Of a stretch of DNA of 64,000 nucleotides, positions 5,349 to 43,440 are shown piece after piece. Origin of the DNA: Rhodospirillaceae bacterium (GTDB taxonomy: Bacteria > Pseudomonadota > Alphaproteobacteria > JAEUKQ01); NCBI GenBank assembly GCA_016722635.1, contig JADKIX010000005.1, positions 15,484-79,483 on the forward strand, in the 5' to 3' direction. The position numbers and the translations under genes were made by a program. Under the pieces are notes generated by a model. It worked only from the letters and a program-made list of their open reading frames with translations. It was not told where the DNA came from and ran no database searches. The stretch's first letter is position 1; each line of letters starts with the position of its first letter.

Positions 5349-5360
5349 ATTTCCCTCCCG

Positions 5361-6484: not shown

Positions 6485-6520
6485 TTTATGTTCTCCAATT
6501 AAGGGTTAAAATACAGGGGA

Positions 6521-8626: not shown

Positions 8627-8726
8627 TTTTATTCCTTTCAAATTCCGCCGTGGAAGGGGGGTGGGCTGCCGCTAAATGCGGGTTGGCCATTCCCACTCCT
8701 GTATCATAGACGCCTAATCATAGCAT

Positions 8727-23554: not shown

Positions 23555-23840
23555 ATATACCTCCAGAGCATGGGTTAAAAGGAAAATCATTGCTCAGAGG
23601 GGGTGCCCAGCCGGGCTGGACCCATCCTGGATAATTGCGCCCATCCTTGGGGGTTGAACCCATTTTATGGGTAATCCCGGGCGGCCTGCTTTCAGGCGGT
23701 CAGCGGAACCGGTCACTGGCGGCCGGTGTCTCCGCAAATATCAAGGCCAGTGAAACTTTGGATATTGATCAAAGGATCAATGAAAGGGGGAAGTGGAAGG
23801 TGGTGGTGTTAGGGCAAATGAAAAAAGGGAGAACCCTGTT

Positions 23841-26108: not shown

Positions 26109-27809
26109 TCATGAAACCGGCATCGGCATTTCCTGATCCGGTGGTTCGGCCATGGCCATATCCAGCTGATCAGCTACCTCTTTCACCGGTAAGCCTGCCT
26201 GCGACAAGTCACGCATGGCCCCGGCCATTGGCTTAGCCGCCGCCAACATCGATTGCATGCTTTGTTGTTGCCCGCGGCTGGCACGCAACTCCTCCACAGC
26301 TTGCGGGTCACGCAGGATACGGGCGGGTGCCCCGAACGCATCCAAAATGGCGCGGGCATAGGCATCGGCATCAATATTATCCATGATGGTGGGATCAAGT
26401 TGCGCCAAGGGTGATAAAGCCTCAACCGCCCGTAAAATCGCCGTACCTTCACTGGATTTTTGCGCCCGGGCTAAGGGCGAGACATATTCCACCCGTAATT
26501 TCAGCAAATCCTGCATCACCGGCGGTGACGGGGGGAATGCCCCGGCCCGCACCATCATATTAAACTGGCGGCTGATTAAGGGATCCAGGAATTCGCATTG
26601 CAAGCGCCCAAGATGCGGGCCCATCAGGCGCAATTTTTCTTCCTGCCGCACCAACACCTCGGTCGCGGTTTGGTTGGGTTGCTGCACGAGGAGCATGAGG
26701 GAGTGGAAAAAGGCTTCGCGGATGGCACCCCGCCGCTGTTCTTCAATTTCAAGCCCCAAATTCAAATTGCCACCGGTCAATAACGGCTCATATAACCGGC
26801 GGCCATTGGCATCCAACCCGCCATAAATGATCCCACCCGGGCTGGTGCGGATACCGCGCACCGCATTTTCATCGGTTGCCAGCAGGGGTGGGTCAACCGC
26901 CTTCTGCGCGCCAACGATCATGGTTTTGGACATGGTGTTGAGCATTTTCACATCCGGCAAGGCAAGCATCGCCGGGCTGTCCCCGTAAACGCCACGGGAA
27001 CGGGTTGACCAGCGCGGCACCATATAAGGGAATTCATGGAACCCCCCCTCCGCCAGTAAAATCTTTTCCTCCAAATTCACGTAGAAACTGGCCCAGTTCT
27101 TACCTTTGGCATCGAAGCGCTGCCGGTCAATATCCTCCCGTGGCATCACGCCATGCAGGAAGGTGAATTTACGGTCTGGCTCTTTTTCAGCCGCTTTCAT
27201 GATTTTCTCGCCGCAGGTTTTTCCCCAACGTTGCAAGGCTTGCCGGGCCGTCCAGGAAAATTTGCGGATGACGGTATCGATATCGCCCCAATCATTTTCG
27301 GCAATAAAACATTCCATCAAGGGGCGGCAGGAATAATGGACGGCGTTTTGCCCAACCGCCTCCTCCACATAAAAAATACCGGTGCCGAAAGACACCAAAT
27401 CAGCGTATAAATCCATGACACGGCTATAAAAACGGCCGCCATGGGCTGAAAAGGCATCACGCATGCGGCGACTGGCATTATCCAGCCAACGGCGTGCTGT
27501 GAATTCCTGATTAAGCGCCGGATCTTGCGCTTGCAGGCTGAACCATTCATTGGCGGAATTGGTAATCATGCCCCACAGGCCTGCCGCCAATTGCTCGGCT
27601 GCTAAGGAAGCCGTGCCGTCATATTGTTTTTGCAGGCGTTTTTCCCCCGCCTGACGCGGAAAAACCCCATTGCCCAGGGTAAAATCGGCCCGCATCGGGT
27701 TAACCAATTCGGCAATTTCCTGCCAATGTTGTTCAAGCGGCATCCTTTCGGCCGCCAGTTGTTCTTGCCGCCGGATAAGTTCCAAGGCGCGCTGTTCGGG
27801 AACTGCCAT
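26109..27809 (-). CDS. Portal (head-to-tail connector) protein
   Basis: 566 aa. The N-terminus RRQEQLAAERMPLEQHWQEIAELVNPMRADF and the overall length are typical of podovirus gp8-type portals. The position fits. Confidence 0.8.
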   Translation of the reverse strand: MAVPEQRALELIRRQEQLAAERMPLEQHWQEIAELVNPMRADFTLGNGVFPRQAGEKRLQKQYDGTASLAAEQLAAGLWGMITNSANEWFSLQAQDPALNQEFTARRWLDNASRRMRDAFSAHGGRFYSRVMDLYADLVSFGTGIFYVEEAVGQNAVHYSCRPLMECFIAENDWGDIDTVIRKFSWTARQALQRWGKTCGEKIMKAAEKEPDRKFTFLHGVMPREDIDRQRFDAKGKNWASFYVNLEEKILLAEGGFHEFPYMVPRWSTRSRGVYGDSPAMLALPDVKMLNTMSKTMIVGAQKAVDPPLLATDENAVRGIRTSPGGIIYGGLDANGRRLYEPLLTGGNLNLGLEIEEQRRGAIREAFFHSLMLLVQQPNQTATEVLVRQEEKLRLMGPHLGRLQCEFLDPLISRQFNMMVRAGAFPPSPPVMQDLLKLRVEYVSPLARAQKSSEGTAILRAVEALSPLAQLDPTIMDNIDADAYARAILDAFGAPARILRDPQAVEELRASRGQQQSMQSMLAAAKPMAGAMRDLSQAGLPVKEVADQLDMAMAEPPDQEMPMPVS

Positions 27810-27812
27810 ATT

Positions 27813-28016
27813 TTATTCCCCCAACAATTTTTTGGTATAACTGGGGGCCGCCCCTAAAACAGTTTCATCCGCCGAAAGTAAGGTTGATGAACGCCCTTTG
27901 GCCAGGCGCGCGCGGCGCCTTTCCTCCTCCATCGCCGCTAAAACATCCGCATCCGACCGTTGTGGTGCTTCGGGAAGTTTTGGTGGTTTCGGTGTTTTAA
28001 ATGGTCCTTTGCACAT
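27813..28016 (-). CDS. Small basic phage protein upstream of portal
   Basis: 67 aa (KTPKPPKLPEAPQ...EEERRRARLAKGRSSTLL). Proteins of this kind recur in this slot of alphaproteobacterial podophages. Confidence 0.45.
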   Translation of the reverse strand: MCKGPFKTPKPPKLPEAPQRSDADVLAAMEEERRRARLAKGRSSTLLSADETVLGAAPSYTKKLLGE

Positions 28017-28476
28017 ATTTTTTCTCCCATGAAAAAAGAATGAAGTCTTCCTGGTTTTTTCCGTACTTTCGCAAAACGGCTTCGGGCTCTGCCCCCAAAT
28101 ATTTCAGCCAGCGATGAACCACTGGCCTATCCGCAATCGCCATACATTCCGCCCGGTGCGCGTGCTTTGATAAAATAAAGGGAATGAATTGGCGGCGGAG
28201 GTGACGGGTCACCTTGGCCCCAACCGCAGGCCAATCGTCCGTCGCAAACAGCCAGACCGACCATACGCCCGGCCACATTTCAACCGCACCGAAGGCGGCA
28301 ACGGGCGTATGGTCATGGCTGAGCGCCAATTGCCCAAAATTGGTGCCTTCATAGAGCTGCTGGGCAAATTCCTGCTCATCCTGCCGCCAGCGGGTGGCAA
28401 AAATCTCGCGCCGGTCATCTCTGCGCATATGCTGGACAACATATGCAAGGCTTGGCAAATGAAGCGGTTGGAACAT
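27997..28476 (-). CDS. Phage protein, possibly acyltransferase-like (DUF2833-type?)
   Basis: The start is at the internal Met MFQPLHLPSL. 159 aa. It is the first gene of the contiguous portal-to-lysis block. Confidence 0.3.
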   Translation of the reverse strand: MFQPLHLPSLAYVVQHMRRDDRREIFATRWRQDEQEFAQQLYEGTNFGQLALSHDHTPVAAFGAVEMWPGVWSVWLFATDDWPAVGAKVTRHLRRQFIPFILSKHAHRAECMAIADRPVVHRWLKYLGAEPEAVLRKYGKNQEDFILFSWEKKYVQRTI

Positions 28477-28770
28477 GCTGTGCCCCTGAAAAAGATAAAA
28501 TGAAAATTGTTGGGTAAAATAGCAGGCAGGCCATGGGCAAACCGAAACACCCGCCACCGCAGCCAAATGAATAATCAGGATATTTTTGAAAATATCATGG
28601 CCCTGAAGACAGATAAGGGCATCATCCGTTGCCTGGCAAAACGGTGCTTAGCTGATGAATGATTGATTTCAATTGCAGAAGGTCGATTGGCATAGGATGG
28701 ATTGCTTGGCCGCACGTATTCTTGACCTGGGTCATGTAAACTTGGGAAATTGAAAAACCGGGGATTGGGC

Positions 28771-28802
28771 AAAAAAAAACCAACACTCGTTAAAGTGTTG
28801 GT
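28771..28802 (-). terminator. Rho-independent terminator
   Basis: On the minus strand, an 8-bp stem ACCAACAC/GTGTTGGT with an 8-nt loop is followed by a run of nine T. Confidence 0.6.
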
Positions 28803-28879
28803 TCAACCTCTTCCCTGATAACATACGGTATACGTGTAAAAACTGCCTATTTATATTTATAATGTTCTTTAAACATCAT
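28771..28879 (-). ncRNA. Candidate ~110-nt small transcript (promoter-like box to terminator)
   Basis: Minus strand: TTGACA (28914-28909), a 17-nt spacer, then TATCGT (28891-28886). About 110 nt follow, ending in the terminator above. The only ORF inside is 10 codons. Confidence 0.25.
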
Positions 28880-29238
28880 ACTTTCACGATACCCACCTTT
28901 ATTACCAATGTCAATAAAAAAAATAAGGCATGTTTTATTGTTGCATTAAAAACTTAAAAAATTGCTGACCGTAAATATATCAGCCTGTTACGTGGCATTT
29001 GTAATAACTTATTTTTCATCAATTACCAGCATCATAAAGCTCCTTCCCTAAAAATGTGGTGGTGTTAGTATAGGGAATTTTCTTGCTTTTTCAAATATTG
29101 CTAGCCTTTGATAAAAAAATGAGCCAAATATTCCAACCAACGCAACGGGATGGCGCTTAAGGTACTGGGCCACAAGGTTAAACCGCCCTACACATTAAGG
29201 ATGGCGGATGAAATTATCCCTACCGAATGTTCCCCTGG

Positions 29239-29817
29239 TTAGCAGCCATAATCAACGGATAGATGAAAAATTTGTTGCAATAATTGTTGCGCCAACAATT
29301 CGGGGCGCACCCCTTGCACCGGCCATTTGCAACCTTGCTGGCTGGGTAATCCCGATTGCTGGCGCTTGTGAATGACATTCCCCGGTCCTTGGATAAAGCT
29401 TTCAAGCATGACATAGCTCCCCCCGCCTTGTTCCACCATCTGTCCAATCATCACCCCCCTTAATTGCTGCTGGTTTTGATCTATAATGGCTGCAAAACCG
29501 TAAGGACAAATTTCCTTAAATTTTTGTCCTGGCCCCAATTCCATGAGATTAGATGTTTTCCTACAATAATAACCCATGACAACAACCGCTTGGTCAACCT
29601 GTTGGCGGGTGATGGCCAGCGGCAGCTGATTCATATAAGACCAATTTTCTGGCCCAATCAATTTTTGCAACTGCTGCTGCCAATCTTCACCCCATATTGC
29701 CTGGAAGGACTGATGACCCTTAGAAATTCCCGGATCAGGCGATTGGGCGGCGGCGGGATAGGATGCCATCAGGCAAAAACAGCGAAGCCACAGAAGAACC
29801 CTAGATATTTTGATCAT
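29239..29817 (-). CDS. Exported Ivy-like protein, family 1 member A
   Basis: Internal Met with signal MIKISRVLLWLRCFCLMASYPAAA. Core VVVMGYYCRKTS...C and the C-terminal family motif. Confidence 0.5.
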   Translation of the reverse strand: MIKISRVLLWLRCFCLMASYPAAAQSPDPGISKGHQSFQAIWGEDWQQQLQKLIGPENWSYMNQLPLAITRQQVDQAVVVMGYYCRKTSNLMELGPGQKFKEICPYGFAAIIDQNQQQLRGVMIGQMVEQGGGSYVMLESFIQGPGNVIHKRQQSGLPSQQGCKWPVQGVRPELLAQQLLQQIFHLSVDYGC

Positions 29818-29942
29818 TCTTATCTTTTCCCCTTTGCCTGTTACCGATAAAAAATATTTCGCAGGATATACCAAAAGCCATAATCATGCCATAATCATCC
29901 GGTAATGATTTGTATGATGACCATTAAAAGGACTTTTTAGCT

Positions 29943-30566
29943 GTGAAAAATATTCCGCCCATCGTTTTACTACTTCTATCCTGTTTTTATTTCCCACAAC
30001 CAGCCAGCGCTTGTGAACCATCCCCTGCAGGGCTTCCTGCCCTTGATGCGTATATAGGCCATCCCTCCAACCACCGCATCCAAGCCCAATCACTGTCCTT
30101 CACTTTATTCGATGTAGCATCTTTCCAAATTTCCGCCAAATTTGCAGGCGATGACGGATGTATAGTGGCCGCAAAGATCAGCGAATTAGATGAAGGTGAT
30201 CATTTCCCGATTGTTGCCAAAATTGGCAATTGGTTGGTCGGGCAAAGTTACGGTTGTGACCATGATGGTTGTTATGATGTAGGCATGATTGCCTATAACA
30301 CCGTTTCCGGTGAGATCGGTGGATGCTTGATGGATGGCAAACAGGCCTATGACGGGGATTCGCCTTTTAAAATACCCGGTGAGAATCTGGTCATCTTCGG
30401 CTCAAAAGATGGCGGATATATGATCAACCTTAATCTTGGGAACACCAGTCAACTGCCCGGATATGTGTATGGTTGCGGCTCCCCCACTCAGGATGCCCAA
30501 CAGATTTTAACCCGTTGGCAATTCTTTGACCAAATCATGGCGCTGTCCAACCGGTTGGGCAAATAA
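29943..30566 (+). CDS. Exported Ivy-like protein, family 1 member B
   Basis: It has a signal peptide. The core NWLVGQSYGCDHDGCYDVGMIAY has the same strand-C-x4-C-strand layout as the Ivy CKPHDC loop. The C-terminus is YGCGSPTQDAQQILTRWQ. Confidence 0.55.
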   Translation: MKNIPPIVLLLLSCFYFPQPASACEPSPAGLPALDAYIGHPSNHRIQAQSLSFTLFDVASFQISAKFAGDDGCIVAAKISELDEGDHFPIVAKIGNWLVGQSYGCDHDGCYDVGMIAYNTVSGEIGGCLMDGKQAYDGDSPFKIPGENLVIFGSKDGGYMINLNLGNTSQLPGYVYGCGSPTQDAQQILTRWQFFDQIMALSNRLGK

Positions 30567-30585
30567 TTTTGAGGTGCTTGATCAC

Positions 30586-31305
30586 ATGATAGGAATTCGT
30601 TTTTATTTTGTTTTTATATTGGCTTTCGCTTTGCCTTTGATTAAAGTCCAGGGCCAAAATGTCAGCGCCAGTTGTGAATATGTAGGCGAATCTGCAGGCC
30701 AGCGGCAATATGATTGTAATTTAGGGGCAGCAACCATTGCCGATTGGGTGGGGTATTATCCCGGAGATATGAGAAGATTGGGTGCACAAGGCCAACAGGT
30801 GAATTTTTACCAATTCCTCCTGGGCCAGCCGGAACTTTTTGAAAATATTCCTGAACCCGACCTTGCTTACTTGCGGCAGCAGTTGCAGCAACAAGCGGAT
30901 GATTTGGTGCGGCAAATCCATACAGCCGACTTGTACCCTAAAATCACCCAAGTGCAAGATTGGGTGATCGTCCAAAGTTATCGCTGTGATCCCAACATGT
31001 GCGTTGATTTATCGGTTTTGATGGTTGATACCACGAACCAACATATCACTGTTTGTATCCTTTCCCTACCCTCTACCCTCATTTCCCTAAGCTCCCTGAC
31101 CCCTGCCCTGATTGGGGAACTGGCAGTGCAAATCTTCACCTCATTTCCAGATAGGAAGGGATACAGCTTTTCAAGGCCCATGCAGGAATTGCGACAAGAA
31201 CCAGGATATGCTTGCGGCAACCCCAGCCATAATCCCTCACTAATCCTTAAAAATTTGCAAATGCTTGAAAAAAACTTGATTGAGCACGATCCCCATCATC
31301 CATAA
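30586..31305 (+). CDS. Exported Ivy-like protein, family 1 member C
   Basis: Internal Met with signal MIGIRFYFVFILAFALPLIKVQG. Core WVIVQSYRCDPNMCVDLSVLMVD. Confidence 0.55.
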   Translation: MIGIRFYFVFILAFALPLIKVQGQNVSASCEYVGESAGQRQYDCNLGAATIADWVGYYPGDMRRLGAQGQQVNFYQFLLGQPELFENIPEPDLAYLRQQLQQQADDLVRQIHTADLYPKITQVQDWVIVQSYRCDPNMCVDLSVLMVDTTNQHITVCILSLPSTLISLSSLTPALIGELAVQIFTSFPDRKGYSFSRPMQELRQEPGYACGNPSHNPSLILKNLQMLEKNLIEHDPHHP

Positions 31306-31402
31306 AAATTCAGGAGTAGATCATGATGCAGCTCGCCTCTTTTTTTAGCCTTTTTCTTCTATCCGTTGGTTAAGAAGAATAGGTTTAACTTTACTTTTAT
31401 TA

Positions 31403-32020
31403 ATGGCGTCAATTCCCTCCCCCGTGTTTGCGGACGAATATTACACCCTCAGTGGCTGGGTGGGGCAAAATCCTTTCGCAGGCACGGGAAATAAGCAGGG
31501 GAAAATCTTATATGAAGATCCGCAATTCAAGGCGATTTTTTTACATTTGCTTGAGGCAAATATGCCTCCCCTAATGGCAGAACAATTATGGCAAAGCATC
31601 TTGAAGCAAGATTCTTACGCGCAAGTGGTGAAAGTTGATAATTTTGTCCTGGTGATGGGATTTAATTGCAGATGGCAAGGCTGCCCGGAACATCATGTCT
31701 TTTTTTACGAAGAAATTGGCGATGGCGCCCGGGTAGGTATCTGCACCTCTGTTTTAGAGCCAGCGAGTGCCAGTCAAGATCAGAACGGTGTCATTGCACA
31801 AAAATTCCGCCAGCGCTTGCAATTTTATGGTTCTGGCTGGCCGGGATCGGTTGATATCCGTTTTTCCCCACTAGCCGCCTTTCCTGATATGCGCGGCAGG
31901 TTCTCACCTACCCCCGGCGGCAGGGGTTGCTTCGGCAGTGGCCTTCCCACCCCCAACCCTGCAACCGCTTTGCAAATATGGCAAGAAATAGGACAAAAAA
32001 TGCAATTAGGGTTACCGTAG
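31403..32020 (+). CDS. Ivy-like protein, family 1 member D (N-terminal signal apparently disrupted)
   Basis: Core FVLVMGFNCRWQGCPEHHVFFYE. The upstream frame reads ..RRIGLTLLLLMASIPSPVFA without a start codon, and a separate short ORF MMQLASFFSLFLLSVG (31323-) lies in another frame. Confidence 0.5.
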   Translation: MASIPSPVFADEYYTLSGWVGQNPFAGTGNKQGKILYEDPQFKAIFLHLLEANMPPLMAEQLWQSILKQDSYAQVVKVDNFVLVMGFNCRWQGCPEHHVFFYEEIGDGARVGICTSVLEPASASQDQNGVIAQKFRQRLQFYGSGWPGSVDIRFSPLAAFPDMRGRFSPTPGGRGCFGSGLPTPNPATALQIWQEIGQKMQLGLP

Positions 32021-32188
32021 AAGTAAGGTTTCTTATCTCCATTATCCCTCCATAATAACCTCAGCAAAGATACGGCGATATTTATCGTTAAAATGGAAAA
32101 TAGTGTTTGGTCGCCGGTGGTTAATGCTGCATCGAATATAGGCTATTTACTGTTCTTTAGTCAATCGGTCCCGGTTGAGGAGGCCGAT

Positions 32189-33100
32189 TTACAATTGGCC
32201 TTTCTTTTCCATAAATTTTTCAAGCTGTTCCAACCGGTTGGCAATGGGCGGATGGCTGTTGGTATACATAACCATAAACCCGTATCTGGGGCGATATTCA
32301 ATCTGGCTAATATCTTCAAAAAATTCTCGTAACCCGGCCGCATAGCCCAGTTCAGCCGAAAAACGGTCGGCACGGAATTCCACGCGTCGGCTGTTTAAAG
32401 AAACAATGAACCAGGCTATCCCTTCAATCATCTTGCTAACCCCTGCCAATAACATAAAGGGCAGCAAGGCCATTAGGATAAAGCCACTGATAGCACCCTC
32501 ACTATCATCGTTATCATCCTTTTTTCTTTTCTTCGGTGGTTCATCCGCCATAAAAATAGCGACAATGCCCCCGAATATCCGTGCTAACAAATTAATCCCC
32601 CGCATTGCCATTAGCAGCGCCGAGTCACCATGGTATAAATGGCCCAATTCATGCCCGATCACCGCGGCAATTTGGTCATCATCGCTTGCCAAAAGCCCCT
32701 GGGTCAAAATAAGGGTGGAATGGCCCAGGGCCTGCGCTTGGGGTATGGGATCATCGATAATATATAATTTGACTTTTTTGTTTTTCCCTGTCCTTTGCCG
32801 GTAGCGGCGCATGATTTCCTGCATCAAGGGCTGCAAGCGTTCTTTTTCCCTTTTAACCAGCCGACGCATGGGGAAAAACAGGCGCGAAAACCACTCATTT
32901 AATGGCGAGGCGCCAATAACCGCTAAAATGACAATAACAGCAATGGACATGCCCATCCACCATAATGGGCCAAATTGAGCTTCAAAGGATGATCTTGGCA
33001 ATATTTTATCGCCCTGCGATACCCCTATGACGAAACATCCTATCTGCCAAACAAACAGCCAGTTGGCAAAAGCAGTCACGGTAATAGCAAAATAACGCAT
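32189..33100 (-). CDS. Polytopic M48-family (HtpX-like) zinc metalloprotease
   Basis: 303 aa. It carries HELGHLYHGD (HExxH), the downstream EFRADRFSA, SHPPIANR and about four hydrophobic helices. The start lies 3 nt after the stop of 33104-34939. Confidence 0.8.
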   Translation of the reverse strand: MRYFAITVTAFANWLFVWQIGCFVIGVSQGDKILPRSSFEAQFGPLWWMGMSIAVIVILAVIGASPLNEWFSRLFFPMRRLVKREKERLQPLMQEIMRRYRQRTGKNKKVKLYIIDDPIPQAQALGHSTLILTQGLLASDDDQIAAVIGHELGHLYHGDSALLMAMRGINLLARIFGGIVAIFMADEPPKKRKKDDNDDSEGAISGFILMALLPFMLLAGVSKMIEGIAWFIVSLNSRRVEFRADRFSAELGYAAGLREFFEDISQIEYRPRYGFMVMYTNSHPPIANRLEQLEKFMEKKGQL

Positions 33101-33103
33101 GGG

Positions 33104-34939
33104 TTACCCCTGTTCTTGTAATATATTGCTTAAAGAAAGGCGAAGTTTATATAGCTTATGATCACTTTTCGTTACCATCACTGCCTCACCAAGCTTCAGC
33201 CGTTTTATTTCATCCGGCTGGATAACGTAATCCCGAACCCGGCGGACCCCATCCTGGCTATCTAACCAAGTTAGCTGATATTTTTCCTTCATCCCGATCA
33301 CTTCAACCAACATCCGGGCATCATCTGGGTTATTCTGCCGCTGGATGATATAATTGTTGCAATTGGCAATCACCTGACTTAATAGATAATCCCTGTATTC
33401 AGGCTGGGAACGCGCAATATCGCCAAGGCTTTGCGCGGTTACAACCATATTAAAGCCAGCGGCCCGGGATTGATTCAATAAACCAATTAATGGCGGGCCC
33501 GCTAAGGGGCCCAGTTCATCAACAATCACAAAGAAATTGTCTTTGATGGTTTTTTGTAATTGTTGGGCGGCAAAGGCTTTTAGATCGCTTAAGATCAATT
33601 GCATCAATTTGGATAAAATCGCTGGCATGTCCAAGCTTGGTAAACTGAAACAGATCACCGCCCCCTGCTGAATGGCTTGAGGAATTACCAAATGGCTGGG
33701 ATTTGGGGGCGATGTCGATTGCTGAGACGGCCCTGATGAACGGAAAACATGGCCAATCTGGGAATGAACCAGCCCCTGCAGGTGCCGCTGAACCTCTTCA
33801 AGCGTTTCTGGCGGAATCAATGGCTCTTCCGCTGGTTGATTAAACTGGATTACCCTGCCATCCCGGGAAGCAGGTTTTTGCTCCTGCAGCAGTTTCTTTA
33901 AAACCCCTGGGCGGATGTAGGTAGAAATTTCGCCTAGGTTGGGTTGCATCCCCAACCACTCAAAAACAGAAAACATGAACGCTAAATAGTTTAAAACTGC
34001 CTGGTCAGCCGCCAAACCGCTGTCCAGCAATAAGGCTAACCGTTCGGCCTTTGCTGAAAAACCACCTGTGATAAAAGGATGATAGGTTGTCAGGGTATGA
34101 ATGCCTATAACGTAACAAGGACGGCCTGATTTTTTGGCGTAGCTTGCAATATTATCCACCAAAACACGGTCGCCTTTGCCATCCATATAAAGGATCGGTT
34201 TTGCCCGGTTAATGGCGCTTTCCATGATCATGCAGGAAAGATTGGTTTTACCGCTTCCGGTCGTTCCCAAGATGAGGGTATGGGTATTCGCTTGCAGGTC
34301 TGTTAAATAAACAGCTGCGCCCGAATTTTTATCTTTGCCAATGAACGTACGGCCCGAATCTTCGATCGGTTTAGCGGCGCCAACCTGATTGTTGCTGGCG
34401 CGGGCGGTAAATAATTGGGGTGGCACCAACAGGTTTTCCGTGACCGCTTTCCCGTGAAACAGCCATCGCCAAGGCCGATGGGTATAAAATTCCCAGATTA
34501 ACAGCATAAGACCCGTACACAAGAAGGCAATTGGGATAAATTCTATCCAATTCCTGGTATCTTGCATCCAAACCCAGAACCCTTTTCCCCATAAACTTAC
34601 CCAAATTTTGGCCAGCTGGATTTTGCCTTGGAACAATTTATCTAAGCTAAACCCTGCCAAGGCCTGTTCATAGGCAATCCCAACCCGTTTTAACGGGGCA
34701 GCCAGCCACTGCCATTTCAAAACCCAGCCTATGCGCCAAAGACCCGTAACAAAGGCCAAAGCAATAAAAAACACCCCCCCTCCATAGCGGACATGCAAGA
34801 AACGGCTTCCTATAAAAAGCAGCAATGTCATCAGAAAACCAAGGGGCCCGGCAATAGCTAGGACAGCGCCCAGCATTCCCACCATCAACACTCCCCCAAG
34901 TAGGTTATAAAAAAAACGGATGCTGAAAAATGACGACAT
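33104..34939 (-). CDS. Membrane-anchored TraD/TraG/VirD4-like (T4CP-like) P-loop NTPase
   Basis: 611 aa with about four N-terminal TM helices. Walker A is LILGTTGSGKTN and Walker B is FFVIVDELGPL. The block VVTAQSLGDI...NCNNYIIQRQNNPDDARMLVEVIG is typical of coupling proteins. Confidence 0.7.
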   Translation of the reverse strand: MSSFFSIRFFYNLLGGVLMVGMLGAVLAIAGPLGFLMTLLLFIGSRFLHVRYGGGVFFIALAFVTGLWRIGWVLKWQWLAAPLKRVGIAYEQALAGFSLDKLFQGKIQLAKIWVSLWGKGFWVWMQDTRNWIEFIPIAFLCTGLMLLIWEFYTHRPWRWLFHGKAVTENLLVPPQLFTARASNNQVGAAKPIEDSGRTFIGKDKNSGAAVYLTDLQANTHTLILGTTGSGKTNLSCMIMESAINRAKPILYMDGKGDRVLVDNIASYAKKSGRPCYVIGIHTLTTYHPFITGGFSAKAERLALLLDSGLAADQAVLNYLAFMFSVFEWLGMQPNLGEISTYIRPGVLKKLLQEQKPASRDGRVIQFNQPAEEPLIPPETLEEVQRHLQGLVHSQIGHVFRSSGPSQQSTSPPNPSHLVIPQAIQQGAVICFSLPSLDMPAILSKLMQLILSDLKAFAAQQLQKTIKDNFFVIVDELGPLAGPPLIGLLNQSRAAGFNMVVTAQSLGDIARSQPEYRDYLLSQVIANCNNYIIQRQNNPDDARMLVEVIGMKEKYQLTWLDSQDGVRRVRDYVIQPDEIKRLKLGEAVMVTKSDHKLYKLRLSLSNILQEQG

Positions 34940-35195
34940 TCTGAACCTATGCCAAAGCCAGTACGCAGGAAAAGCGGTGATTAGAAAAAGCTATTTCATC
35001 TTAATAAGCGCTGGGCGCTTTATCAATATTTTATTTTCTGATGATGAATTGCCAGCAACCAGGCGGTGATCCTGTGACAAGTGGTTCCATGCCATGATAG
35101 GCGTTGCATAAAAAATTCCGCAAGCGCAGGTTTTTTTCAATTGCCGCGTCTTATTTAGTAACAAGGTTATTTTATCTTTTACATGAAGGAGATAT

Positions 35196-35672
35196 TTGAT
35201 GAATTCTTTCCTACGGTATTCTTGCATTGCCACATTCACGTCGATTCTGATGGGAACGAGTGCCATGGCCCAAAAGCCCGAACAAAACCCGGGCCATACC
35301 CCGCCAAGCGGCCAGACGATGTTTAATTATTTGGATAAAAACGGCGATGGCACTATCAGCCGGGAAGAATTTGACAAAGCCCGTCAAGAACGCCAAAACC
35401 GTCAGCAACAAAGTGGCGGACAGCACCGCGAGCTTGGTGATAACCGCACCCCTTACCAAGCACAAGGCAACCACCAACAGGGGGATGGTCACCATCATGA
35501 GCAGCGCCAGCGTTGGATAAACGTGATGTATGACCGGGCTGATCGCAACCAAGATGGCGTGGTTAGCAAGGGGGAATTTTTGATCCGGGCAGAAAAATTG
35601 TTTGAGCGTCTGGATAAGAATGAGGATGGGTTATTGCAGAAAAATGAATTGAAGCACTCAAAAAATCAATAA
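35196..35672 (+). CDS. Exported EF-hand calcium-binding protein
   Basis: SD AAGGAG and a signal peptide. Three EF loops: DKNGDGTISREEF, DRNQDGVVSKGEF and DKNEDGLLQKNEL. Confidence 0.75.
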   Translation: MMNSFLRYSCIATFTSILMGTSAMAQKPEQNPGHTPPSGQTMFNYLDKNGDGTISREEFDKARQERQNRQQQSGGQHRELGDNRTPYQAQGNHQQGDGHHHEQRQRWINVMYDRADRNQDGVVSKGEFLIRAEKLFERLDKNEDGLLQKNELKHSKNQ

Positions 35673-35853
35673 AATATCAAGGAAAATTGCGGGTTCCTGA
35701 CCTCATCGATAACCGATTATTGTTACTAAGGGGAAATTGGCCAGATGACAAGCCGGTTTCCCCTTGATCAATCGGACATAACCAGAAACCTAACTTGATA
35801 TCACGACCCGTTTAGGATTATCCTGAGAACTCGCCACCTGAACCCCGTGGTTC

Positions 35854-36429
35854 TTATTTCCCCAGCAATATTTGCAACGCTTGCCATTGTTTAATCGCCT
35901 TTTCCGCATCACCGTGGCCACAATCAGCGAATTGGTCGGTTGCATTGAAAACTAATTGACCGGCAGGAATATAATATTGCACTTTAACCAGGGTAATATG
36001 TAAGGGGCGATCTTTACCCGAAGGTTCATTGGCATCGGGATAATACGGGTATACCCGGCTATGTGATGCTAAACAAACCCCTGCCACTTGCTGGGTAGTC
36101 GTGTCTAGAAAAATACTCAGATCCGTATCGCCCGGATTATTTTTCAAATGGCCGCTAACCACCAGCCAATGATCCATTTGACCGACCGGTTGGGCAAAAA
36201 CATAGGTTTTCCAAAGTTCGTTCCACTGCTGCAATGGGATCAGCTGTTCAATACCTTGCCGAAAGGTTGGATGTTCAAACAAGGTCATGCCCAAAATTTC
36301 TTGATCCGGCTGACTGCCAACCCATTTTTCAAATTTCGGCAATTGGCTAAGCACGCGCGCATCAAGCGGCTGGGACAAAATTGCCAAACTTAAACATATC
36401 AAAACGAAGCCATATAATTTTTTGATCAT
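35854..36429 (-). CDS. Exported Ivy-like protein, family 1 member E (loop cysteines lost)
   Basis: It has a signal peptide and the same layout (HPTFRQGIEQL...WLVVSGHLKNNPGDTDLSIFLD). The C-terminus FADCGHGDAEKAIKQWQALQ matches the family. Confidence 0.45.
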   Translation of the reverse strand: MIKKLYGFVLICLSLAILSQPLDARVLSQLPKFEKWVGSQPDQEILGMTLFEHPTFRQGIEQLIPLQQWNELWKTYVFAQPVGQMDHWLVVSGHLKNNPGDTDLSIFLDTTTQQVAGVCLASHSRVYPYYPDANEPSGKDRPLHITLVKVQYYIPAGQLVFNATDQFADCGHGDAEKAIKQWQALQILLGK

Positions 36430-36473
36430 CGCCTCTCACTTTCTTTTTAGTCAGGTTACGACGCAGCTTAGGC

Positions 36474-36597
36474 TTATTTCCGCACTAATTTCAGAACTTC
36501 TTGCCATTGACGGATCACTTGTTGCAAGTCATCACCCCCACAATTCTCAACAGAGCATGCTTAAAATGACCATAAGATAACAATAAAAGCGTTTCAT
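36474..36597 (-). pseudogene. Remnant of a family 1 gene (signal peptide fused out of frame to the C-terminal motif)
   Basis: MKRFYCYLMVILSMLC ends in a stop. The next frame reads ENCGGDDLQQVIRQWQEVLKLVRK, which matches the C-terminus of 35854-36429. Confidence 0.45.
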
Positions 36598-36614
36598 CAT
36601 CCCCATATTCCCTC

Positions 36615-37004
36615 TCAATAGGGCAATGGATGGGTTTGATAGAAATCATGGCAAGCTTGCTTCTTTTCTACACTAATGATACCCAGCGTCAGCATCTCCT
36701 CACAAAAACTTTGGGACGTGAGGGGGATATAGGGACCAACTAAATCTCTTCCATAGAACCTTCTTTTAACAGCCCCATCCGCCAATACAGATTCGCAGGT
36801 GGTCAATTCTTGATCAGCTTCATTGGCAAAATCTTGTAAAGTCACCCCCTCTTTTAATAACCCAGCATCCTTTAATGCCTGGCAATAGGGCTGCATATTT
36901 GCTTCAACGCAGGGCAAACAAATTTTTATTGCCAGCAATCCGGTAATTGGCATCACGCTTAGGATCATTGCTAAAAATACAGTTCTTATCTTCCTGATTC
37001 CCAT
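36615..37004 (-). CDS. Exported Cys-rich small protein
   Basis: 129 aa with an N-terminal hydrophobic anchor or signal and seven Cys. Confidence 0.45.
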   Translation of the reverse strand: MGIRKIRTVFLAMILSVMPITGLLAIKICLPCVEANMQPYCQALKDAGLLKEGVTLQDFANEADQELTTCESVLADGAVKRRFYGRDLVGPYIPLTSQSFCEEMLTLGIISVEKKQACHDFYQTHPLPY

Positions 37005-37217
37005 TTTCCTTACCCATCATCATTAAAGTTACAGCCTATATAATCCTTAATTATGGCTTTTTTGTGGCACTCCGATCAACCCCTAGCCAATGCCGCCGTT
37101 TTCTATATTATCCAGCTTAGAACCTGTTTTTTGCTTGACCTTTCCCCATCTGTAACTTGACTTATGCCTAAAATATATTGAAGATGCGCTAGGTGTTGCA
37201 AAAAATGGTGAGAACAG

Positions 37218-38342
37218 ATGGCACTTCATAAAAAAATCGCTCGACTGATCAAAAATGGTGAATTTCTTTACTGGATTAACAAAAAATGGCGGATTTGGCG
37301 TAAACGCAAAGCTTCCTCCCTGGGCCTGCCAGCCATATCCGAAAAAGTCATCCGGCAGCCAGTGGTTGTAGACTTGCCGGAGCGCGACCCCAACAAAGCC
37401 CCTGCCGTCAGCGACCAAAATTTTCCCTATCAATTGATGGCCGCGGTGATCATTAAAAATGAAGCGCCTTATATGGTTGAGTGGTTGGAATTTCACCGGT
37501 TGGTTGGCATCCAAAAAATCATCATTTATGATAATGGCAGCTCCGATAATATTCAGGAACTTTTAAAGCCTTATATCCTAGAGGGTTATGTAGAACTGAT
37601 CCCCTGGCCCAATTTCTTATTCCAATATAATCACCAGCATCTTTGTTATGCCCATGTCGTCCGCTACACCGCCCAAATGACCAAATGGCTGGCTATTATC
37701 GATGCCGACGAGTTTTTGTTTTCCCCAACCGGCCGACCCTTGCCACAAATTTTGGCACAATATGGCGATATCCCCATCCTGGGCGCTGCCATGCGGATTT
37801 TCGGGTTTTCGGGGCATGAAAAAAAACCGCAAGGATTGGTAACCGAAAACTTCCTCTACCGCTTTGCTGACCATGAGCCGGAAAGTAATCAATACCGCTC
37901 AATCGTGCAGCCACGCTTGGTGCGCTCGATCATTAGCGCTGCACGTTACCATCATTTACTGAATAACGTCCCTGCTTATGATGAAGACCGCAACCCGCTG
38001 CATAACTGGCCAACCGAAAAACCCTTAAACAGCATTCAGCTGCGGGTGAACCATTATCTCACCAAATCACGGGAAGAATTTATGCAGAAAATCAGCCGTC
38101 AATATTTCGTGCCACTGGAAAGATATCTGAAGCGTTATAAGAAAAAATATAAAACCCAAGCACAAAAAGATCAAATTGCCGCAGATTGGGCCAAATGGAC
38201 GCAGGCATCTAAGATGAAAATGCACCAGAAGATTTTTAATACGCCGCTAGAAAATTTCGTGTTGGATCAGGAGATTTTGATGTACCAGGCCCAACTGCAG
38301 GAAGCCATCCGTCAGCGTTTATTGCAGATAGCTGATGTTTAA
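37218..38342 (+). CDS. Glycosyltransferase (GT2/GT92-like fold)
   Basis: The motif AAVIIKNEAPYMVEWLEFHRLVGIQKIIIYDNGSSDN and the DADEF acidic motif. No TM segments. Confidence 0.6.
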   Translation: MALHKKIARLIKNGEFLYWINKKWRIWRKRKASSLGLPAISEKVIRQPVVVDLPERDPNKAPAVSDQNFPYQLMAAVIIKNEAPYMVEWLEFHRLVGIQKIIIYDNGSSDNIQELLKPYILEGYVELIPWPNFLFQYNHQHLCYAHVVRYTAQMTKWLAIIDADEFLFSPTGRPLPQILAQYGDIPILGAAMRIFGFSGHEKKPQGLVTENFLYRFADHEPESNQYRSIVQPRLVRSIISAARYHHLLNNVPAYDEDRNPLHNWPTEKPLNSIQLRVNHYLTKSREEFMQKISRQYFVPLERYLKRYKKKYKTQAQKDQIAADWAKWTQASKMKMHQKIFNTPLENFVLDQEILMYQAQLQEAIRQRLLQIADV

Positions 38343-38587
38343 AACTTTTAACAGTTTGTAAGGCTTATCCGGGTTTGTTTTTTGGGGCTATTCCACTTAA
38401 GGTCTAGTGTTTATGGCAGTATTTTAGCTTCTTTAACAGCTGTTGGTGGTTACCTCGATTGAAGTGCCACGCACCATCCTTCAGGAAGCAGTGAAAATTC
38501 TTCTTTTGGATGCCATGAAGCGACTCCTTCTCTCCTACATATTGCCATCCTAGCAAACCCGCTGGATGCAATAGCCCCTAGATCCAT

Positions 38588-39856
38588 TCACCACCCGAAC
38601 GGGTTATAGTCAGCGTTGGTTTGGCCGGGGGTAGGCAACGCGCGGGTGCGGTCACGCCAGCCGACCGCTAAATAGCGGAAGGCATCGGCGGCGTGGCTGG
38701 CCCAATCATGCAAGGGGCTGGCGCGGAAGGTTTGGCCCTTATCATCCCATTCGCGTCTGTATTGCCGCAGCGCCTCAATCCCCCGCCCGCAGCGATTGAT
38801 ATCAAACTGGCATTGCGGCAATAATTGGCGCACCGCGTTAATGCCATCCTCCAGCGACAATTTGGGCACAATCCGTCCCTTGATCCCCAATTGCTTGAGG
38901 GTCTCGAGGCGGCTGCGGCCCGTGCCAAGTTCCCGTACCTCCGCATCATGGGGCAGCAAATGCTCGCCGTATTTATAGGGTTTGGCCGCCAATTGGCTGG
39001 CATAATAATCCAAGCCCACCCCGCTGGCCTCCACATAATCCACCACCGCCAGCCTTCCGGCCTGTTGCTGGTAAAACCAAATCACCGTGCTGTCGCCAAT
39101 CCCCAAATCCCAGGCCGTATGCACCGGCAAATCCGGCTGGATGGATAAGGTTGCAAGCGCCCCCTGCTGCTCCAGCCTATTCATCATTTCGCCGTAATAA
39201 GCGCCCTGCACGGCGGCTTGGAAACTGCACTCAAACTCCTGCGCGTATTGATCCGGGCTCATTACCTGCTTGGCGGCGGCCAGTTCATCAAGGGGCAACA
39301 GGCCGGTTTCACTGGCTTTCAAGCGAAAGGTAAACCAGGTTGGATCCAGCTTGGCTTGTTCATAAAGCTTGCAAAAAGCATTGCGCCCCATCGGTGTGCC
39401 GATAAAAACCACCCAGCCCTGCCGGTCGGCCAGCGACGGCCTTATCACCTCGGTCCAAATACGCGGGGACATTTGGGCATATTCATCAAGAACCACGCCG
39501 TCCAGATAAAGCCCGCGCAAGCGTTCCGGGTTATCCGCCCCATACAGGCGCACCCGCGCCCCATTCGGAAAATCCACCCGCAATTCACTTTCATGGAATT
39601 TCACCCCAGGGACAGCGCGGCTATAATGTTTGACATATTCCCAGGCAATATCCTTGGCTTGCACAAAAAACGGGGCAATATAGGCAAAGCGTGGCTGGTT
39701 GCGCTTAGAGCTTAAAGCCCCTTTAATCAATTCGTTGATGCAGGCCACGGTTTTGCCAGCGCGGCGATGGGCCACCCCCACCGCAAAACGCTGCGGGCGT
39801 TGGTGTAGGGGCTTAAAAGCCGCACGCGGGCGATAAGGAATGGTAATGGCGGGCAT
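38588..39856 (-). CDS. terL: Terminase large subunit
   Basis: 422 aa. Walker A is HRRAGKT and Walker B is VVLDEYA. The nuclease half carries WDLGIGDSTVIW and LLPHDA. Confidence 0.85.
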   Translation of the reverse strand: MPAITIPYRPRAAFKPLHQRPQRFAVGVAHRRAGKTVACINELIKGALSSKRNQPRFAYIAPFFVQAKDIAWEYVKHYSRAVPGVKFHESELRVDFPNGARVRLYGADNPERLRGLYLDGVVLDEYAQMSPRIWTEVIRPSLADRQGWVVFIGTPMGRNAFCKLYEQAKLDPTWFTFRLKASETGLLPLDELAAAKQVMSPDQYAQEFECSFQAAVQGAYYGEMMNRLEQQGALATLSIQPDLPVHTAWDLGIGDSTVIWFYQQQAGRLAVVDYVEASGVGLDYYASQLAAKPYKYGEHLLPHDAEVRELGTGRSRLETLKQLGIKGRIVPKLSLEDGINAVRQLLPQCQFDINRCGRGIEALRQYRREWDDKGQTFRASPLHDWASHAADAFRYLAVGWRDRTRALPTPGQTNADYNPFGW

Positions 39857-39977: not shown

Positions 39978-40538
39978 CTACGATGCGCCCAAACGCAGGG
40001 CTATATATTCCAGGGTAATGGCATAGCCAAGACCACCAATGATATAAAAATACCATTTCACGCCTTTAACAAGATAGGCCTGGATAGCGGTAATCGTAAA
40101 GATCAACAAATAAACATCAAAGCGATAATGAAAGGGAATTAAAACCGCATGATCCGCGTAAGGTTGCCGATGGACACTTGTCCATTGGTAGCGCTGCCAT
40201 TCATAAATCCCGATCATCAGCAAATTAAAGGCGGCGAACAAGGAATCCGGGAAATGCCTGTAAATTTGCCAAACTGCTAAGCCACCTGCCATCAATACCG
40301 AGAAAAGAGTTAGCCACGGATGCTGGGTTGTGATGGCCAGCAAGGCAGCCAACCCTTGGATAAAACCTGCCTGCTGCCAAATATAATAATACCATCCCAC
40401 CAGGCTTAACCCGAACAACGGCCAGAAAATACCCAAGGAAACGGTTTTATCAATGAAAAAAACCGCTTTGGCCGCTTGTTTGATGTTTTTGGTTAGCTCA
40501 TCGTCCGGCTGCTGCCTCATGGCGTCCCTTCGCCTCAT
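39978..40538 (-). CDS. Polytopic membrane protein, last gene of the terS-terL cargo operon
   Basis: 186 aa with five or so hydrophobic helices. The start lies 1 nt after the stop of 40540-41223. Confidence 0.5.
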   Translation of the reverse strand: MRRRDAMRQQPDDELTKNIKQAAKAVFFIDKTVSLGIFWPLFGLSLVGWYYYIWQQAGFIQGLAALLAITTQHPWLTLFSVLMAGGLAVWQIYRHFPDSLFAAFNLLMIGIYEWQRYQWTSVHRQPYADHAVLIPFHYRFDVYLLIFTITAIQAYLVKGVKWYFYIIGGLGYAITLEYIALRLGAS

Positions 40539-40539
40539 T

Positions 40540-41223
40540 TTATGGGTAGGTCAATGGATGGGTAAAACTTTCCTCAAGCCCCCTCAAACAAGCCTGGGCC
40601 GAGTCAAAAAGACCGACGTCTTGGCAACGCTGTTTTACCTGATCACCGACCGTGGGCAGATCGTCAAATTCCAGGGGTTGTTTCATCCCCTCCTGCCAAT
40701 AACGGGCAGGCTTTATCGTCGTAATCGGCCCATCCTGGACTTCCGGTAAAAACAGCAATTGCAGTTTGCCACCCTGACCGTCATTGCCCAAAATAGCAGT
40801 ATAGAAACCATCTATTGTCTTTGGATCTACTAAAAAAGGGCGCCAGCTAAAACTGATGATAATACTCTTGGCACAAGCTTCAGGATAATTGTAAGAATAA
40901 TCGGGATAATCCAATTCTGGACAGAAACCAATTCTTATAATCGCTTGCCCCTCATCCCCGCTTTCTCGAACCTGGATACCAATGTTATTGACCAATTGGC
41001 GGAATTGTTCTTTGGTTAAAAGTTGTTGTAAAGCGGGGGCAACGCGCGGATGCATAAAAAAACCGCCTTTTTGGATGGCACCTTCATCCCAGCATTGCAC
41101 CATCATCACACAACTGATAAAGCCTTGTTTATCTTCCATTTTCACCGGTACCGCTTCTTGGGCGTTGAGATTTGGTATCCAACCCAGCAGCCAAAAAACA
41201 ACCAGGTATTTTTTCATCATCAT
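40540..41223 (-). CDS. Exported Cys-loop protein, family 2 member F
   Basis: Signal MMMKKYLVVFWLLGWIPNLNA. Motifs CVMMVQCW, IRIGFCPELD...CAKSIIISFSWRP, GNDGQGGKLQ and YWQEGM. Confidence 0.5.
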   Translation of the reverse strand: MMMKKYLVVFWLLGWIPNLNAQEAVPVKMEDKQGFISCVMMVQCWDEGAIQKGGFFMHPRVAPALQQLLTKEQFRQLVNNIGIQVRESGDEGQAIIRIGFCPELDYPDYSYNYPEACAKSIIISFSWRPFLVDPKTIDGFYTAILGNDGQGGKLQLLFLPEVQDGPITTIKPARYWQEGMKQPLEFDDLPTVGDQVKQRCQDVGLFDSAQACLRGLEESFTHPLTYP

Positions 41224-41277
41224 TTCCTCTATTAACTTCCTTGTTTGAAGAGATTCTATTGATTCGCTTTATTCCAA

Positions 41278-42618: not shown

Positions 42619-42648
42619 GTTATCTCCTAATACATGTTCGCATTTGGC

Positions 42649-43351
42649 TTATTTTCCTTTTCCAAATGCCTGTTCTAAGGCCTGCATACACTCCGCTGGA
42701 CTTTTGAGTAGGGGTTCTAAGTCCACTAGGACCTTACTACAGATACCCTTAAATAGGTCAGAGTCTTGTTTTTATGATCATTTTTTCTGCCATGCCCTCT
42801 TGCCAATACGCAGCTTCTGTGGGCGAATATACATACAGGATTTGCATCTTGCCACCCTGGCCATCTTTCCCTAACATACCCCTGATAATCGCTCGATAAT
42901 TAATAGGTCTTTCGGACCTAAAGTCGGTGCCTTCAGCGTCTTTTTCATAGACATCCCAAATTTTCCAGGAACTACCCCAACTGAAAGAAACAACCAGCGT
43001 GCGGCCGCAAGGCTGGGGCGGACAAAAACCAAAAGCCACAGCATCAATTCGGTCGTCTCTAGTAAAGAATTCCAATGCCACGCCTTTGTTGTCATCCAGA
43101 ACGTAAAGCGACACGCCTGTGTTAGCAACCAGGGCTCCGTATTCAGCCGGGGTTAAAAATTTCTTGAGTGCCGGGGCAAAGCGATCCATTTCAAAGAAAT
43201 TGGGATGCTGGCGCGCTTCCCAACATTGACCACCTATTACACATTCGAAGAACCAGTAGGATTGATACGATGATAAGCCCGTTTGCGCCTGGGCAGAACT
43301 GTAAAAAACAGCCCAAAAACCGACAATAATCCAAGTAATATTCTTTTGCAT
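42649..43351 (-). pseudogene. Family 2 member H with a 3' frameshift in an A-run
   Basis: The track ORF stops at 42758 (..YWQEGMAEKMIIKTRL). The family C-terminal motif (ICSKVLVDLEPLLKSPAECMQALEQAF) continues in the next frame to 42649. The shift is at ataaaaacaag near 42770. Confidence 0.45.
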
Positions 43352-43440
43352 CTGAATTCCTGTAGGTGAATACGGGTTAAGCAAATAAAGCGCTTCTTAT
43401 GGTAAAAGAACAAAAAATATTTTACCTGATTTGATCAAGC

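Follow-up and report, generated by a model that had tools for sequence, protein, structure and literature searches.

Background

Type IV coupling proteins (T4CPs) are hexameric membrane motors that pass relaxase-bound DNA to the channel of a type IV secretion system (T4SS), and they act as the gatekeepers of conjugation. To our knowledge, it is poorly understood how mobilizable elements that lack a T4SS get a coupling protein of their own accepted by the channel of a helper. CloDF13 is reportedly an element of this kind, with MobC/MobB as a small non-HUH relaxase and a dedicated T4CP. Here we examine a stretch of 64,000 nt from a Rhodospirillaceae bacterium (assembly GCA_016722635.1, contig JADKIX010000005.1, positions 15,484 to 79,483; hereafter the window), in which a prophage carries a T4CP-like ATPase gene that is followed directly by the gene of an M48 metalloprotease. 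We describe this pair as a conserved unit of conjugative ancestry, compare it with its relatives elsewhere, and weigh what the prophage copy may be doing.

The closest described systems are modules that combine a VirD4-type coupling protein with a relaxase of the family Replic_Relax (PF13814), which represents the MobC superfamily in CONJscan; MobC integrative mobilizable elements (IMEs) typically encode their own coupling protein of this type in a compact module (PMC5357655). Replic_Relax proteins join a PD-(D/E)XK fold to a helix-turn-helix domain (PMC3424549). The window ATPase falls into the same T4CP lineage as the modules of streptococcal IME class 8 (PMC5357655) and of Francisella pFPK_1, and in its MobC-module relatives the relaxase gene overlaps the start of the T4CP gene, with an integrase often just upstream. 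The window copy, however, is accompanied by neither relaxase nor integrase and sits in a prophage, and the downstream M48 gene is absent from the described module. With CloDF13 the likeness is conceptual: neither the ATPase profile hidden Markov model (HMM) nor the relaxase HMM that we built matched MobB or MobC, which were therefore rejected as direct homologs, and CloDF13 has no M48 protease.

Other described systems share single components with the locus. Canonical T4CPs (TrwB of R388, VirD4, TraD of the SXT/TOL type, DotL/IcmO) have in common with the window ATPase a membrane anchor, a P-loop domain with an inserted all-alpha domain, and the TraG-D_C region; the window ATPase differs from them in its low identity (13-20%), a remodelled all-alpha domain, the absence of T4SS and relaxase genes in cis, and a membrane domain larger than the two-helix anchor of TrwB. 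HtpX and Ste24 (ZMPSTE24) share with the window protease the HExxH and distal Glu zinc ligands, a helical membrane-embedded fold and a cytoplasm-facing active site, whereas the window protease stands in a clade separate from housekeeping HtpX. Finally, FtsK/HerA/T4CP-type ATPase domains also occur in defence systems, namely in mad8 of MADS and in HerA-type ATPases (SIR2-HerA, DUF4297-HerA, DndH). However, mad8 covers the soluble ATPase part only, HerA matches are limited to the P-loop, and the window has no SIR2 or nuclease partner.

Results and discussion

A coupling-protein ATPase and an M48 protease

An earlier reading of the window, made from the letters alone (hereafter the original prediction), had proposed a membrane ATPase of T4CP type coupled to an HtpX-like protease. 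Both open reading frames (ORFs) were found where it had placed them, and all the motifs that it had quoted are present in the translations: LILGTTGSGKTN at residue 222, FFVIVDELGPL at 469, TAQSLGDI at 501 and NCNNYIIQRQNNPDDARMLVEVIG at 526 of the ATPase, and HELGHLYHGD at 150, EFRADRFSA at 241 and SHPPIANR at 282 of the protease. The features of the pair, from the start of the ATPase gene onwards, are the following.

33104..34939, minus strand: membrane-anchored type IV coupling protein (VirD4/TraD/DotL-type P-loop ATPase), 611 aa; from ORF, Pfam, PDB profile and AlphaFold2 (AF2)/Foldseek
34460..34885, minus strand: N-terminal transmembrane domain of the ATPase, residues 19-160; from hydropathy and AF2
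34244..34267, minus strand: Walker A GTTGSGKT, residues 225-232; from the translation, invariant in 38 family members
33665..34063, minus strand: middle all-alpha domain, residues 293-425; selectively diverged from the family consensus
33515..33520, minus strand: Walker B acidic pair D474-E475 (FFVIVDELG); from the translation
33101..33103, minus strand: 3-nt spacer between the ATPase stop (TAA) and the M48 ATG; from the sequence
32189..33100, minus strand: polytopic M48 zinc metalloprotease (HtpX/Ste24-like), partner of the ATPase, 303 aa; from ORF, Pfam and AF2/Foldseek
32639..32653, minus strand: catalytic zinc-binding HELGH, residues 150-154; from the translation
32378..32380, minus strand: third zinc ligand Glu241 (EFRAD); from the translation, nearly invariant in the alignment of partner M48s

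The ATPase exceeded the Pfam cut-offs of TrwB_AAD_bind (38.2 bits, cut-off 20.5), TraG-D_C (25.8 bits, cut-off 22) and DUF87, and matched FtsK_SpoIIIE exactly at the cut-off of 24 bits. Compared with the PDB, the profile of its family matched DotL/IcmO of Legionella best (8e-21), with HerA and FtsK at 1e-5 or weaker. Similarly, a Foldseek search with the AF2 model (mean pLDDT 75) placed TrwB (1e9s, target TM-score 0.62-0.65) first, with Cag-beta (8dol) and DotL (6sz9) among the leading matches, and ranked DndH, HerA and VirB4 below the T4CPs. The ATPase is thus predicted to adopt a T4CP fold nearer to the solved T4CPs than to HerA, FtsK or VirB4, in agreement with the class first assigned to it. 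It remained below the NCBIfam cut-offs of the named TraD/VirD4 equivalogs (SXT_TraD TIGR03743, TOL TraD, F TraD, TrbC), the best being SXT_TraD with 100.8 bits against 366. The hydropathy scan revealed three strong segments (residues 25-43, 56-74 and 131-149) and the AF2 model has five helices before residue 155 (2-47, 52-70, 77-93, 109-126 and 135-154), between which the "about four" N-terminal transmembrane helices of the original prediction were a fair estimate. In the Walker B pair, E475 is invariant and D474 nearly so (at least 90%) in 38 family members, and both are invariant in the 14 closest.

The assignment of the second gene to the polytopic M48 proteases, with an intact active site, held equally. 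The protein scored 84.6 bits with Peptidase_M48 (PF01435; cut-off 20.3, 1e-23), its closest PDB sequence is Ste24, and ZMPSTE24 was the top Foldseek match of its AF2 model (pLDDT 73). The loop behind its second membrane helix contains 14 Lys/Arg; by the positive-inside rule the catalytic domain should therefore be cytoplasmic, on the side of the ATPase motor, so that both catalytic domains presumably face the cytoplasm from the inner membrane.

The ATPase and its protease are a conserved unit

An AGGGG run that resembles a Shine-Dalgarno sequence lies within the 3' end of the ATPase gene, just upstream of the M48 ATG, and this position makes translational coupling of the two genes likely. In relatives the genes overlap by 4 nt or lie 4-5 nt apart. 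The sole close homolog of the ATPase (80% identity) is found on a related phage contig (L001, L002), with the same M48 gene downstream, but the adjacency noticed in the window is conserved far beyond this contig. An M48 gene also stands behind a 31%-identical relative (P0003) on an integrated element from another metagenome (L003), and in the plasmid collection the best matches of ATPase and M48 are on the same small plasmids of Bacillus thuringiensis and B. cereus, where the two genes are 4-5 nt apart and annotated as "type IV secretion system DNA-binding domain protein" and "zinc metalloprotease HtpX". A genome scan with a 14-sequence alignment of the ATPase family fetched 79 genomic loci. 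Fourteen of those with an ATPase score of 195 bits or more could be evaluated, and in nine an M48 gene follows on the same strand within 1.1 kb, often overlapping the ATPase gene by 4 nt; a downstream M48 is nearly absent at loci with an ATPase score below 100 bits. The pairing spans Alpha- and Gammaproteobacteria and Bacillota, with a weak recurrence in one archaeal contig, and persists down to an ATPase identity of about 26-31%. The word-indexed protein search had returned three ATPase and two M48 matches, the remaining family being found by exhaustive HMMER search and the genome scan; an exact-sequence contig look-up with the window protein gave no match.

The proteases themselves are distinctive as well. 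The partner M48s form a separate clade, found only beside this T4CP family: with their own HMM, intact partners score at least 281 bits and stand-alone M48s at most 185, and with a profile of the partners housekeeping HtpX reaches at most 86. Stand-alone M48 matches on plasmids of Francisella, Brevibacillus, Roseibium and Listeria were weaker, had no link to a T4CP and were rejected as lying outside the partner clade. Pairwise distances among the ATPases track those among the M48s (Mantel r 0.71, p 1e-4; after removal of near-duplicates, r 0.55, p 0.046). ATPase and M48 are a conserved unit that is inherited together.

The opposite view would be that the genes are unrelated, a housekeeping quality-control protease of HtpX type merely adjoining the ATPase gene, and it could appeal to the HtpX label that the Bacillus partner bears in RefSeq. 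It is hardly credible, however, in view of the HtpX equivalog scores of the window protease (at most 45 bits, far under the NCBIfam cut-offs of 245-422), the large score gap between partner clade and HtpX, the adjacency and co-divergence across phyla, and start and stop codons that overlap or nearly abut.

Variants of the arrangement were also encountered. HELGH is kept in 10 of 11 partner M48s; the exception, in a Legionellales metagenome-assembled genome (MAG; L025, 6905-7717), has lost both HExxH and the distal Glu and represents a catalytically dead copy kept beside the T4CP. An Oscillospiraceae partner (L029, 9208-10359) has about 100 additional N-terminal residues, rich in Cys with CxxC-type motifs. 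In a Geminicoccaceae MAG (L017, 9857-12279) and an unassigned metagenome contig (L174, 11894-14421) the M48 gene behind the T4CP is replaced by genes for an extracytoplasmic function (ECF) sigma factor and a coiled-coil protein of about 630-640 aa. On the B. thuringiensis plasmid pYC5 (L004, 2288-8146) a Tn3-family transposase lies directly upstream of T4CP and M48, at the position of the relaxase gene in the plasmid pBFI_6; either the transposon disrupted the module, or the pair moves as transposon cargo.

A conjugative coupling-protein lineage

Nearly every relative of the ATPase has, directly upstream, a gene of 203-236 aa whose stop overlaps the ATPase start and whose product has weak to significant matches to Replic_Relax and to winged-helix domains. 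An HMM of this gene locates a relaxase upstream of the ATPase in about 28 loci, among which are those of all the closest relatives (33-38% identity). The complete trio of relaxase, T4CP and M48 occurs on the 9.8-kb B. cereus plasmid pBFI_6, and MOB-suite typed related plasmids of Francisella and Carboxydocella as MOBC-mobilizable. Four M48-positive loci have a homologous protein of 413-419 aa as the next upstream gene, and the copy that was scanned (L014) showed weak, sub-threshold matches to integrases.

Connections to secretion genes were found in another part of the family. Directly upstream in L022 are VirB9/CagX and VirB10/TrbI, and L024, L028 and L030 have homologs (BLAST/phmmer) at the corresponding place; M48 is missing from each of these four loci. 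ArdA lies downstream in L072, and two more contexts contain ArdA together with a TraF-like S26 peptidase and cargo of the toxin-antitoxin or TIR type. In a neighbour-joining (NJ) tree the M48-positive proteobacterial loci form one clade, in which a relaxase is present at every locus whose upstream flank is available, and no VirB9/VirB10 homolog was found within the 2.4-10 kb that these flanks cover. The T4SS-linked loci form its sister clade, mostly without M48 (the single M48-positive member is L025), and the Bacillota plasmid versions are M48-positive.

Because a relaxase gene overlaps the ATPase start in nearly all relatives and VirB9/VirB10 adjoin the ATPase in sister lineages, the ATPase family is best regarded as a conjugative coupling-protein lineage. 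The usual home of the unit is the mobilization module of T4SS-less IMEs and small plasmids, in the order (integrase)-MobC/Replic_Relax relaxase-T4CP-M48, and in the sister lineages the same relaxase-T4CP pair ends a VirB-type T4SS operon without the protease. We hold these statements on the identity and ancestry of the pair with good confidence. The original prediction had named homologs beside relaxase or VirB genes as the sign of a conjugation remnant, and for the family at large this is what we found. An enrichment of the pair in defence islands, as a sensor and effector standing by themselves, was not found; the pair derives, on the neighbourhoods just described, from a conjugative mobilization module.

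Two elements with relatives of the module also bear cargo of defence type. The element that bears a relative of the module in L003 has SIR2 and DUF87/HerA genes next to an integrase (1420-4568), and L174 contains an array of four TIR-domain genes (1479-8787), three of them also with an FGE-sulfatase domain.

The pair in its prophage

All ORFs of at least 200 aa in the window were scanned with Pfam, and the relaxase HMM and a VirB9/VirB10 search were run besides. The window opens with the host genes fmt, truA and GST, and the phage genes that follow therefore belong to a prophage. The bacterium that harbours it is an uncultured alphaproteobacterium on a deep branch; its fmt is 93% identical to that of an activated-sludge MAG, the next best match being 52%. 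The following features place the pair between portal and terL, as originally described.

22694-23590: capsid gene
26109-27809: T7-type portal (PF12236, 454 bits)
27997-28566: internal virion protein gene
28600..38560: lower-GC cargo block, from the portal side (internal virion protein gene) to terL; from GC profile, Pfam and PHROG scans
34940..35195: divergent intergenic region between ATPase and EF-hand gene; putative promoter region, and site of the relaxase gene in relatives
38588-39856: TerL (Terminase_6N, Pfam)

The cargo block, about 10 kb in length, has a GC content of 45-47% against 51-55% in the structural genes. Besides the ATPase-M48 pair it encodes a GT92 glycosyltransferase, an EF-hand protein and four to five secreted proteins that are paralogs of each other. 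From 35674 down to 23709 it is collinear with L001, a related phage contig, the nucleotide identity being 70-80%. A promoter and terminator scan around the pair found two sigma-70-like matches on the minus strand (35055-35028 and 35026-34998), at consensus level and not above the expectation from shuffled sequence.

The secreted proteins, weakly paralogous to each other (blastp E 1e-12 to 3e-3), flank the pair at 29943-30566 (+), 30526-31305 (+), 31403-32020 (+) and 35854-36429 (-); they are kept in L001 and none was found near other T4CP-M48 loci. The original prediction had called them inhibitor-like, a description that we cannot uphold, as they matched nothing in Pfam, PHROG or PADLOC. An exported EF-hand calcium-binding protein (35196-35672, +) is encoded divergently from the ATPase and occurs at the same place in L001 (56% aa identity; ratio of non-synonymous to synonymous substitution rates, dN/dS, 0.11). 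Near the terL end lies a glycosyltransferase family 92/GT2 protein (37218-38342, +), where L001 has an EamA transporter; that end of the block is therefore variable.

What sets the prophage copy apart

No ORF of at least 60 aa in the window matches the relaxase HMM at E < 0.1, and neither the Pfam scans nor the VirB9/VirB10 search found a T4SS gene in the 64 kb, which agrees with what had been read from the sequence before. The pair nevertheless keeps its catalytic residues (Walker A and B, R492, Q503, HELGH and E241). Compared with the L001 ortholog, dN/dS is 0.17 for the ATPase, 0.15 for its transmembrane domain (80% aa identity) and 0.12 for the M48, at a dS of about 0.6-0.7. The prophage pair is under purifying selection.

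Divergence from the family is concentrated in one domain of the ATPase. The all-alpha domain keeps 37% of the family-conserved positions, while 36 other members keep 84% (median) and none of them less than 55%; in the nucleotide-binding parts of the prophage ATPase the figure is 67-83%. Lost from it are D299, Y311 and Q320, which are invariant elsewhere. In TrwB-type T4CPs this domain is the cytoplasmic part that faces substrate and relaxosome. Between the two phage copies its dN/dS is 0.22. This pattern fits an all-alpha domain that was remodelled once the relaxase had gone and then became constrained again, and hence a change of function better than a mere relic.

An inert remnant of a mobilizable element, trapped among the prophage cargo and without current function, would explain the missing relaxase partner, the foreign GC content of the cargo block and the loss of a family-conserved motif from the all-alpha domain. 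We consider it very improbable, however, because neither ORF is disrupted and no catalytic residue is missing, and because the low dN/dS values between the two phages extend even to the diverged all-alpha domain.

Phage-borne copies are rare in the collections searched: only the L001/L002 ortholog and one short contig, identical, in the JGI metagenomes were recovered. INPHARED (50,697 phage records) contained no phage relative, its only match being a plasmid record held there; IMG/VR gave no relative, and PHROG has no family for the pair. This scarcity bears on a further explanation, according to which the prophage T4CP hitch-hikes, exporting phage DNA or protein through the T4SS of a resident element with the help of a relaxase provided in trans. 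The ATPase has retained its full set of motor residues and, at the C-terminus, the TraG-D_C region, the IME relatives are built to exploit a helper T4SS, and the remodelled all-alpha domain could mean a new substrate. Set against these points are the lack of a relaxase or recognisable oriT-processing gene in the 64 kb, of a T4SS known in the host, and of any precedent in some 50,000 phage genomes or IMG/VR, so that we regard hitch-hiking as quite unlikely.

Other genes of the prophage

Outside the cargo block, several unusual genes were observed. A prophage island of 35-37% GC encodes two tandem proteins with HdeA/HdeB-like (acid-stress chaperone) C-terminal domains (12119-12745 and 12943-13560, both minus strand). 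Another, separate island of 38-41% GC contains a Fic/DOC protein (57732-58901, +) and an AbiEii nucleotidyltransferase toxin (59946-60614, +; PADLOC AbiEii 1.7e-6), and looks like a separate spot for toxin or defence cargo. The small terminase gene, of Sf6 type, is situated about 3.6 kb away from terL (39978-43384 and 43441-44187, both minus strand), and the four ORFs in between, one of which encodes a polytopic membrane protein, matched no family; this stretch is a second unusual insertion inside the packaging module. Two large beta-helix proteins (50019-52133, +, and 52545-55100, -), one with an N-terminal inverse-autotransporter beta-domain, could be tailspikes or adhesins. A second ORF of 611 aa (45334-47169) was considered as a paralog of the ATPase and rejected.

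The question of defence

The original prediction went beyond the identity of the two proteins and saw in them an orphan, unnamed defence or exclusion system. The first part of this view stands: the pair is an orphan in the cargo slot of the window's prophage, and the PADLOC scan assigned it to no named system. The second part found no direct support: the relatives are linked to relaxases, and in their light the impression of an orphan, unnamed system largely fades.

PADLOC matched the ATPase to mad8 of MADS (6e-22). We do not take this match as evidence of defence, since the model appears to be generic: a relaxase-linked IME T4CP scores better (8e-31), and the mad8 HMM was built from HHpred/PDB alignments. 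No other mad genes (methyltransferase, kinase, specificity subunit etc.) were found among the neighbouring genes. Systems of the HerA-effector type (SIR2-HerA, DUF4297-HerA) fit no better, since the PADLOC HerA matches are confined to the P-loop (E 9e-5 or weaker) and the neighbour is an M48 instead of a SIR2 or nuclease. The M48 partners had no PADLOC match, and the flanking cargo genes matched no known defence family.

A new anti-phage defence or superinfection exclusion would work by a T4CP-like motor that senses incoming DNA at the inner membrane and activates the M48, which in turn cuts a membrane protein of host or phage, so that the infection is aborted or blocked. Several observations are in keeping with it. 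The pair is an orphan in a moron slot and under purifying selection, the relaxase has been lost, and the substrate-facing domain is remodelled yet constrained; T4CP/HerA-type ATPase domains have been recruited before, e.g. in mad8 of MADS and in HerA systems; the same prophage carries AbiEii and Fic in its other island, and related islands include SIR2-HerA and TIR cargo. However, all the non-phage relatives that were examined are linked to a relaxase, and some of them to a T4SS as well; the mad8 match appears generic, the M48 is without PADLOC match, and the genes that adjoin the pair are not known defence genes. On balance a new defence or exclusion system appears improbable.

A related, more speculative idea would unite both settings by regarding T4CP-M48 as a relaxase-independent membrane machine. 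In IMEs, the protease would clear or remodel the coupling apparatus of the helper for docking, and the phage would have co-opted the pair as a novel exclusion or defence device, one that meets DNA-transfer machinery or incoming DNA at the inner membrane and answers by proteolysis. To this idea, too, we assign a low probability.

A possible role in competition between mobile elements

The explanation that we favour, and consider reasonably probable, combines a T4CP with a dedicated M48, an origin in a mobilization module, and co-option of the prophage copy. The prophage pair was captured, or retained, without the relaxase. Since both catalytic domains appear to be cytoplasmic and at the inner membrane, ATPase and M48 probably work as a complex. 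The M48 is associated with T4SS-less, relaxase-bearing elements. In mobilizable elements the protease would most likely condition the access of the foreign T4CP to the secretion channel of the helper, perhaps by cutting a membrane component that competes with it, for instance the coupling protein of the helper itself; alternatively, the protease might regulate how much of its own T4CP is present. In the prophage, without relaxase, the pair would be unable to export the DNA of its own element; most likely it now serves, after co-option, in a competition of mobile elements at the membrane, where it would interfere with or exploit resident conjugative machinery, and would serve no conventional phage function. 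This specific mechanistic role is put forward tentatively and has a smaller chance of being correct than the combined explanation itself.

Several points weigh against the favoured explanation. The role proposed for the protease derives from gene order, topology and the anticorrelation between M48 and T4SS, and that anticorrelation is based on about twelve loci, many of them from MAGs, whose flanks extend over 2.4-10 kb. Proteolysis is not always required, as the L025 partner has lost its catalytic motif. The estimate of purifying selection is one pairwise comparison, and the prophage pair is placed on a long branch of the NJ tree, which makes its exact origin uncertain. Finally, the host would have to possess a T4SS on which the pair could act.

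Conclusions

Modules of relaxase and coupling protein are already known, but their conserved M48 partner appears to be undescribed; literature searches for a pairing of T4CP/VirD4 with HtpX/M48 found nothing relevant. Similarly, a relaxase-less copy under selection in a prophage is unusual. If the co-inheritance of a protease with the T4CP specifically in T4SS-less elements holds true, this protease would be a concrete candidate for the step in which the helper channel accepts a foreign coupling protein. Should none of these proposals apply, the finding would be a divergent fragment of a mobilization module carried as prophage cargo. The prophage copy, if functional, would represent a rare case of a phage that borrows conjugation hardware, and might point to a mechanism of exclusion, or to a way in which phages and conjugative elements compete, that is new.

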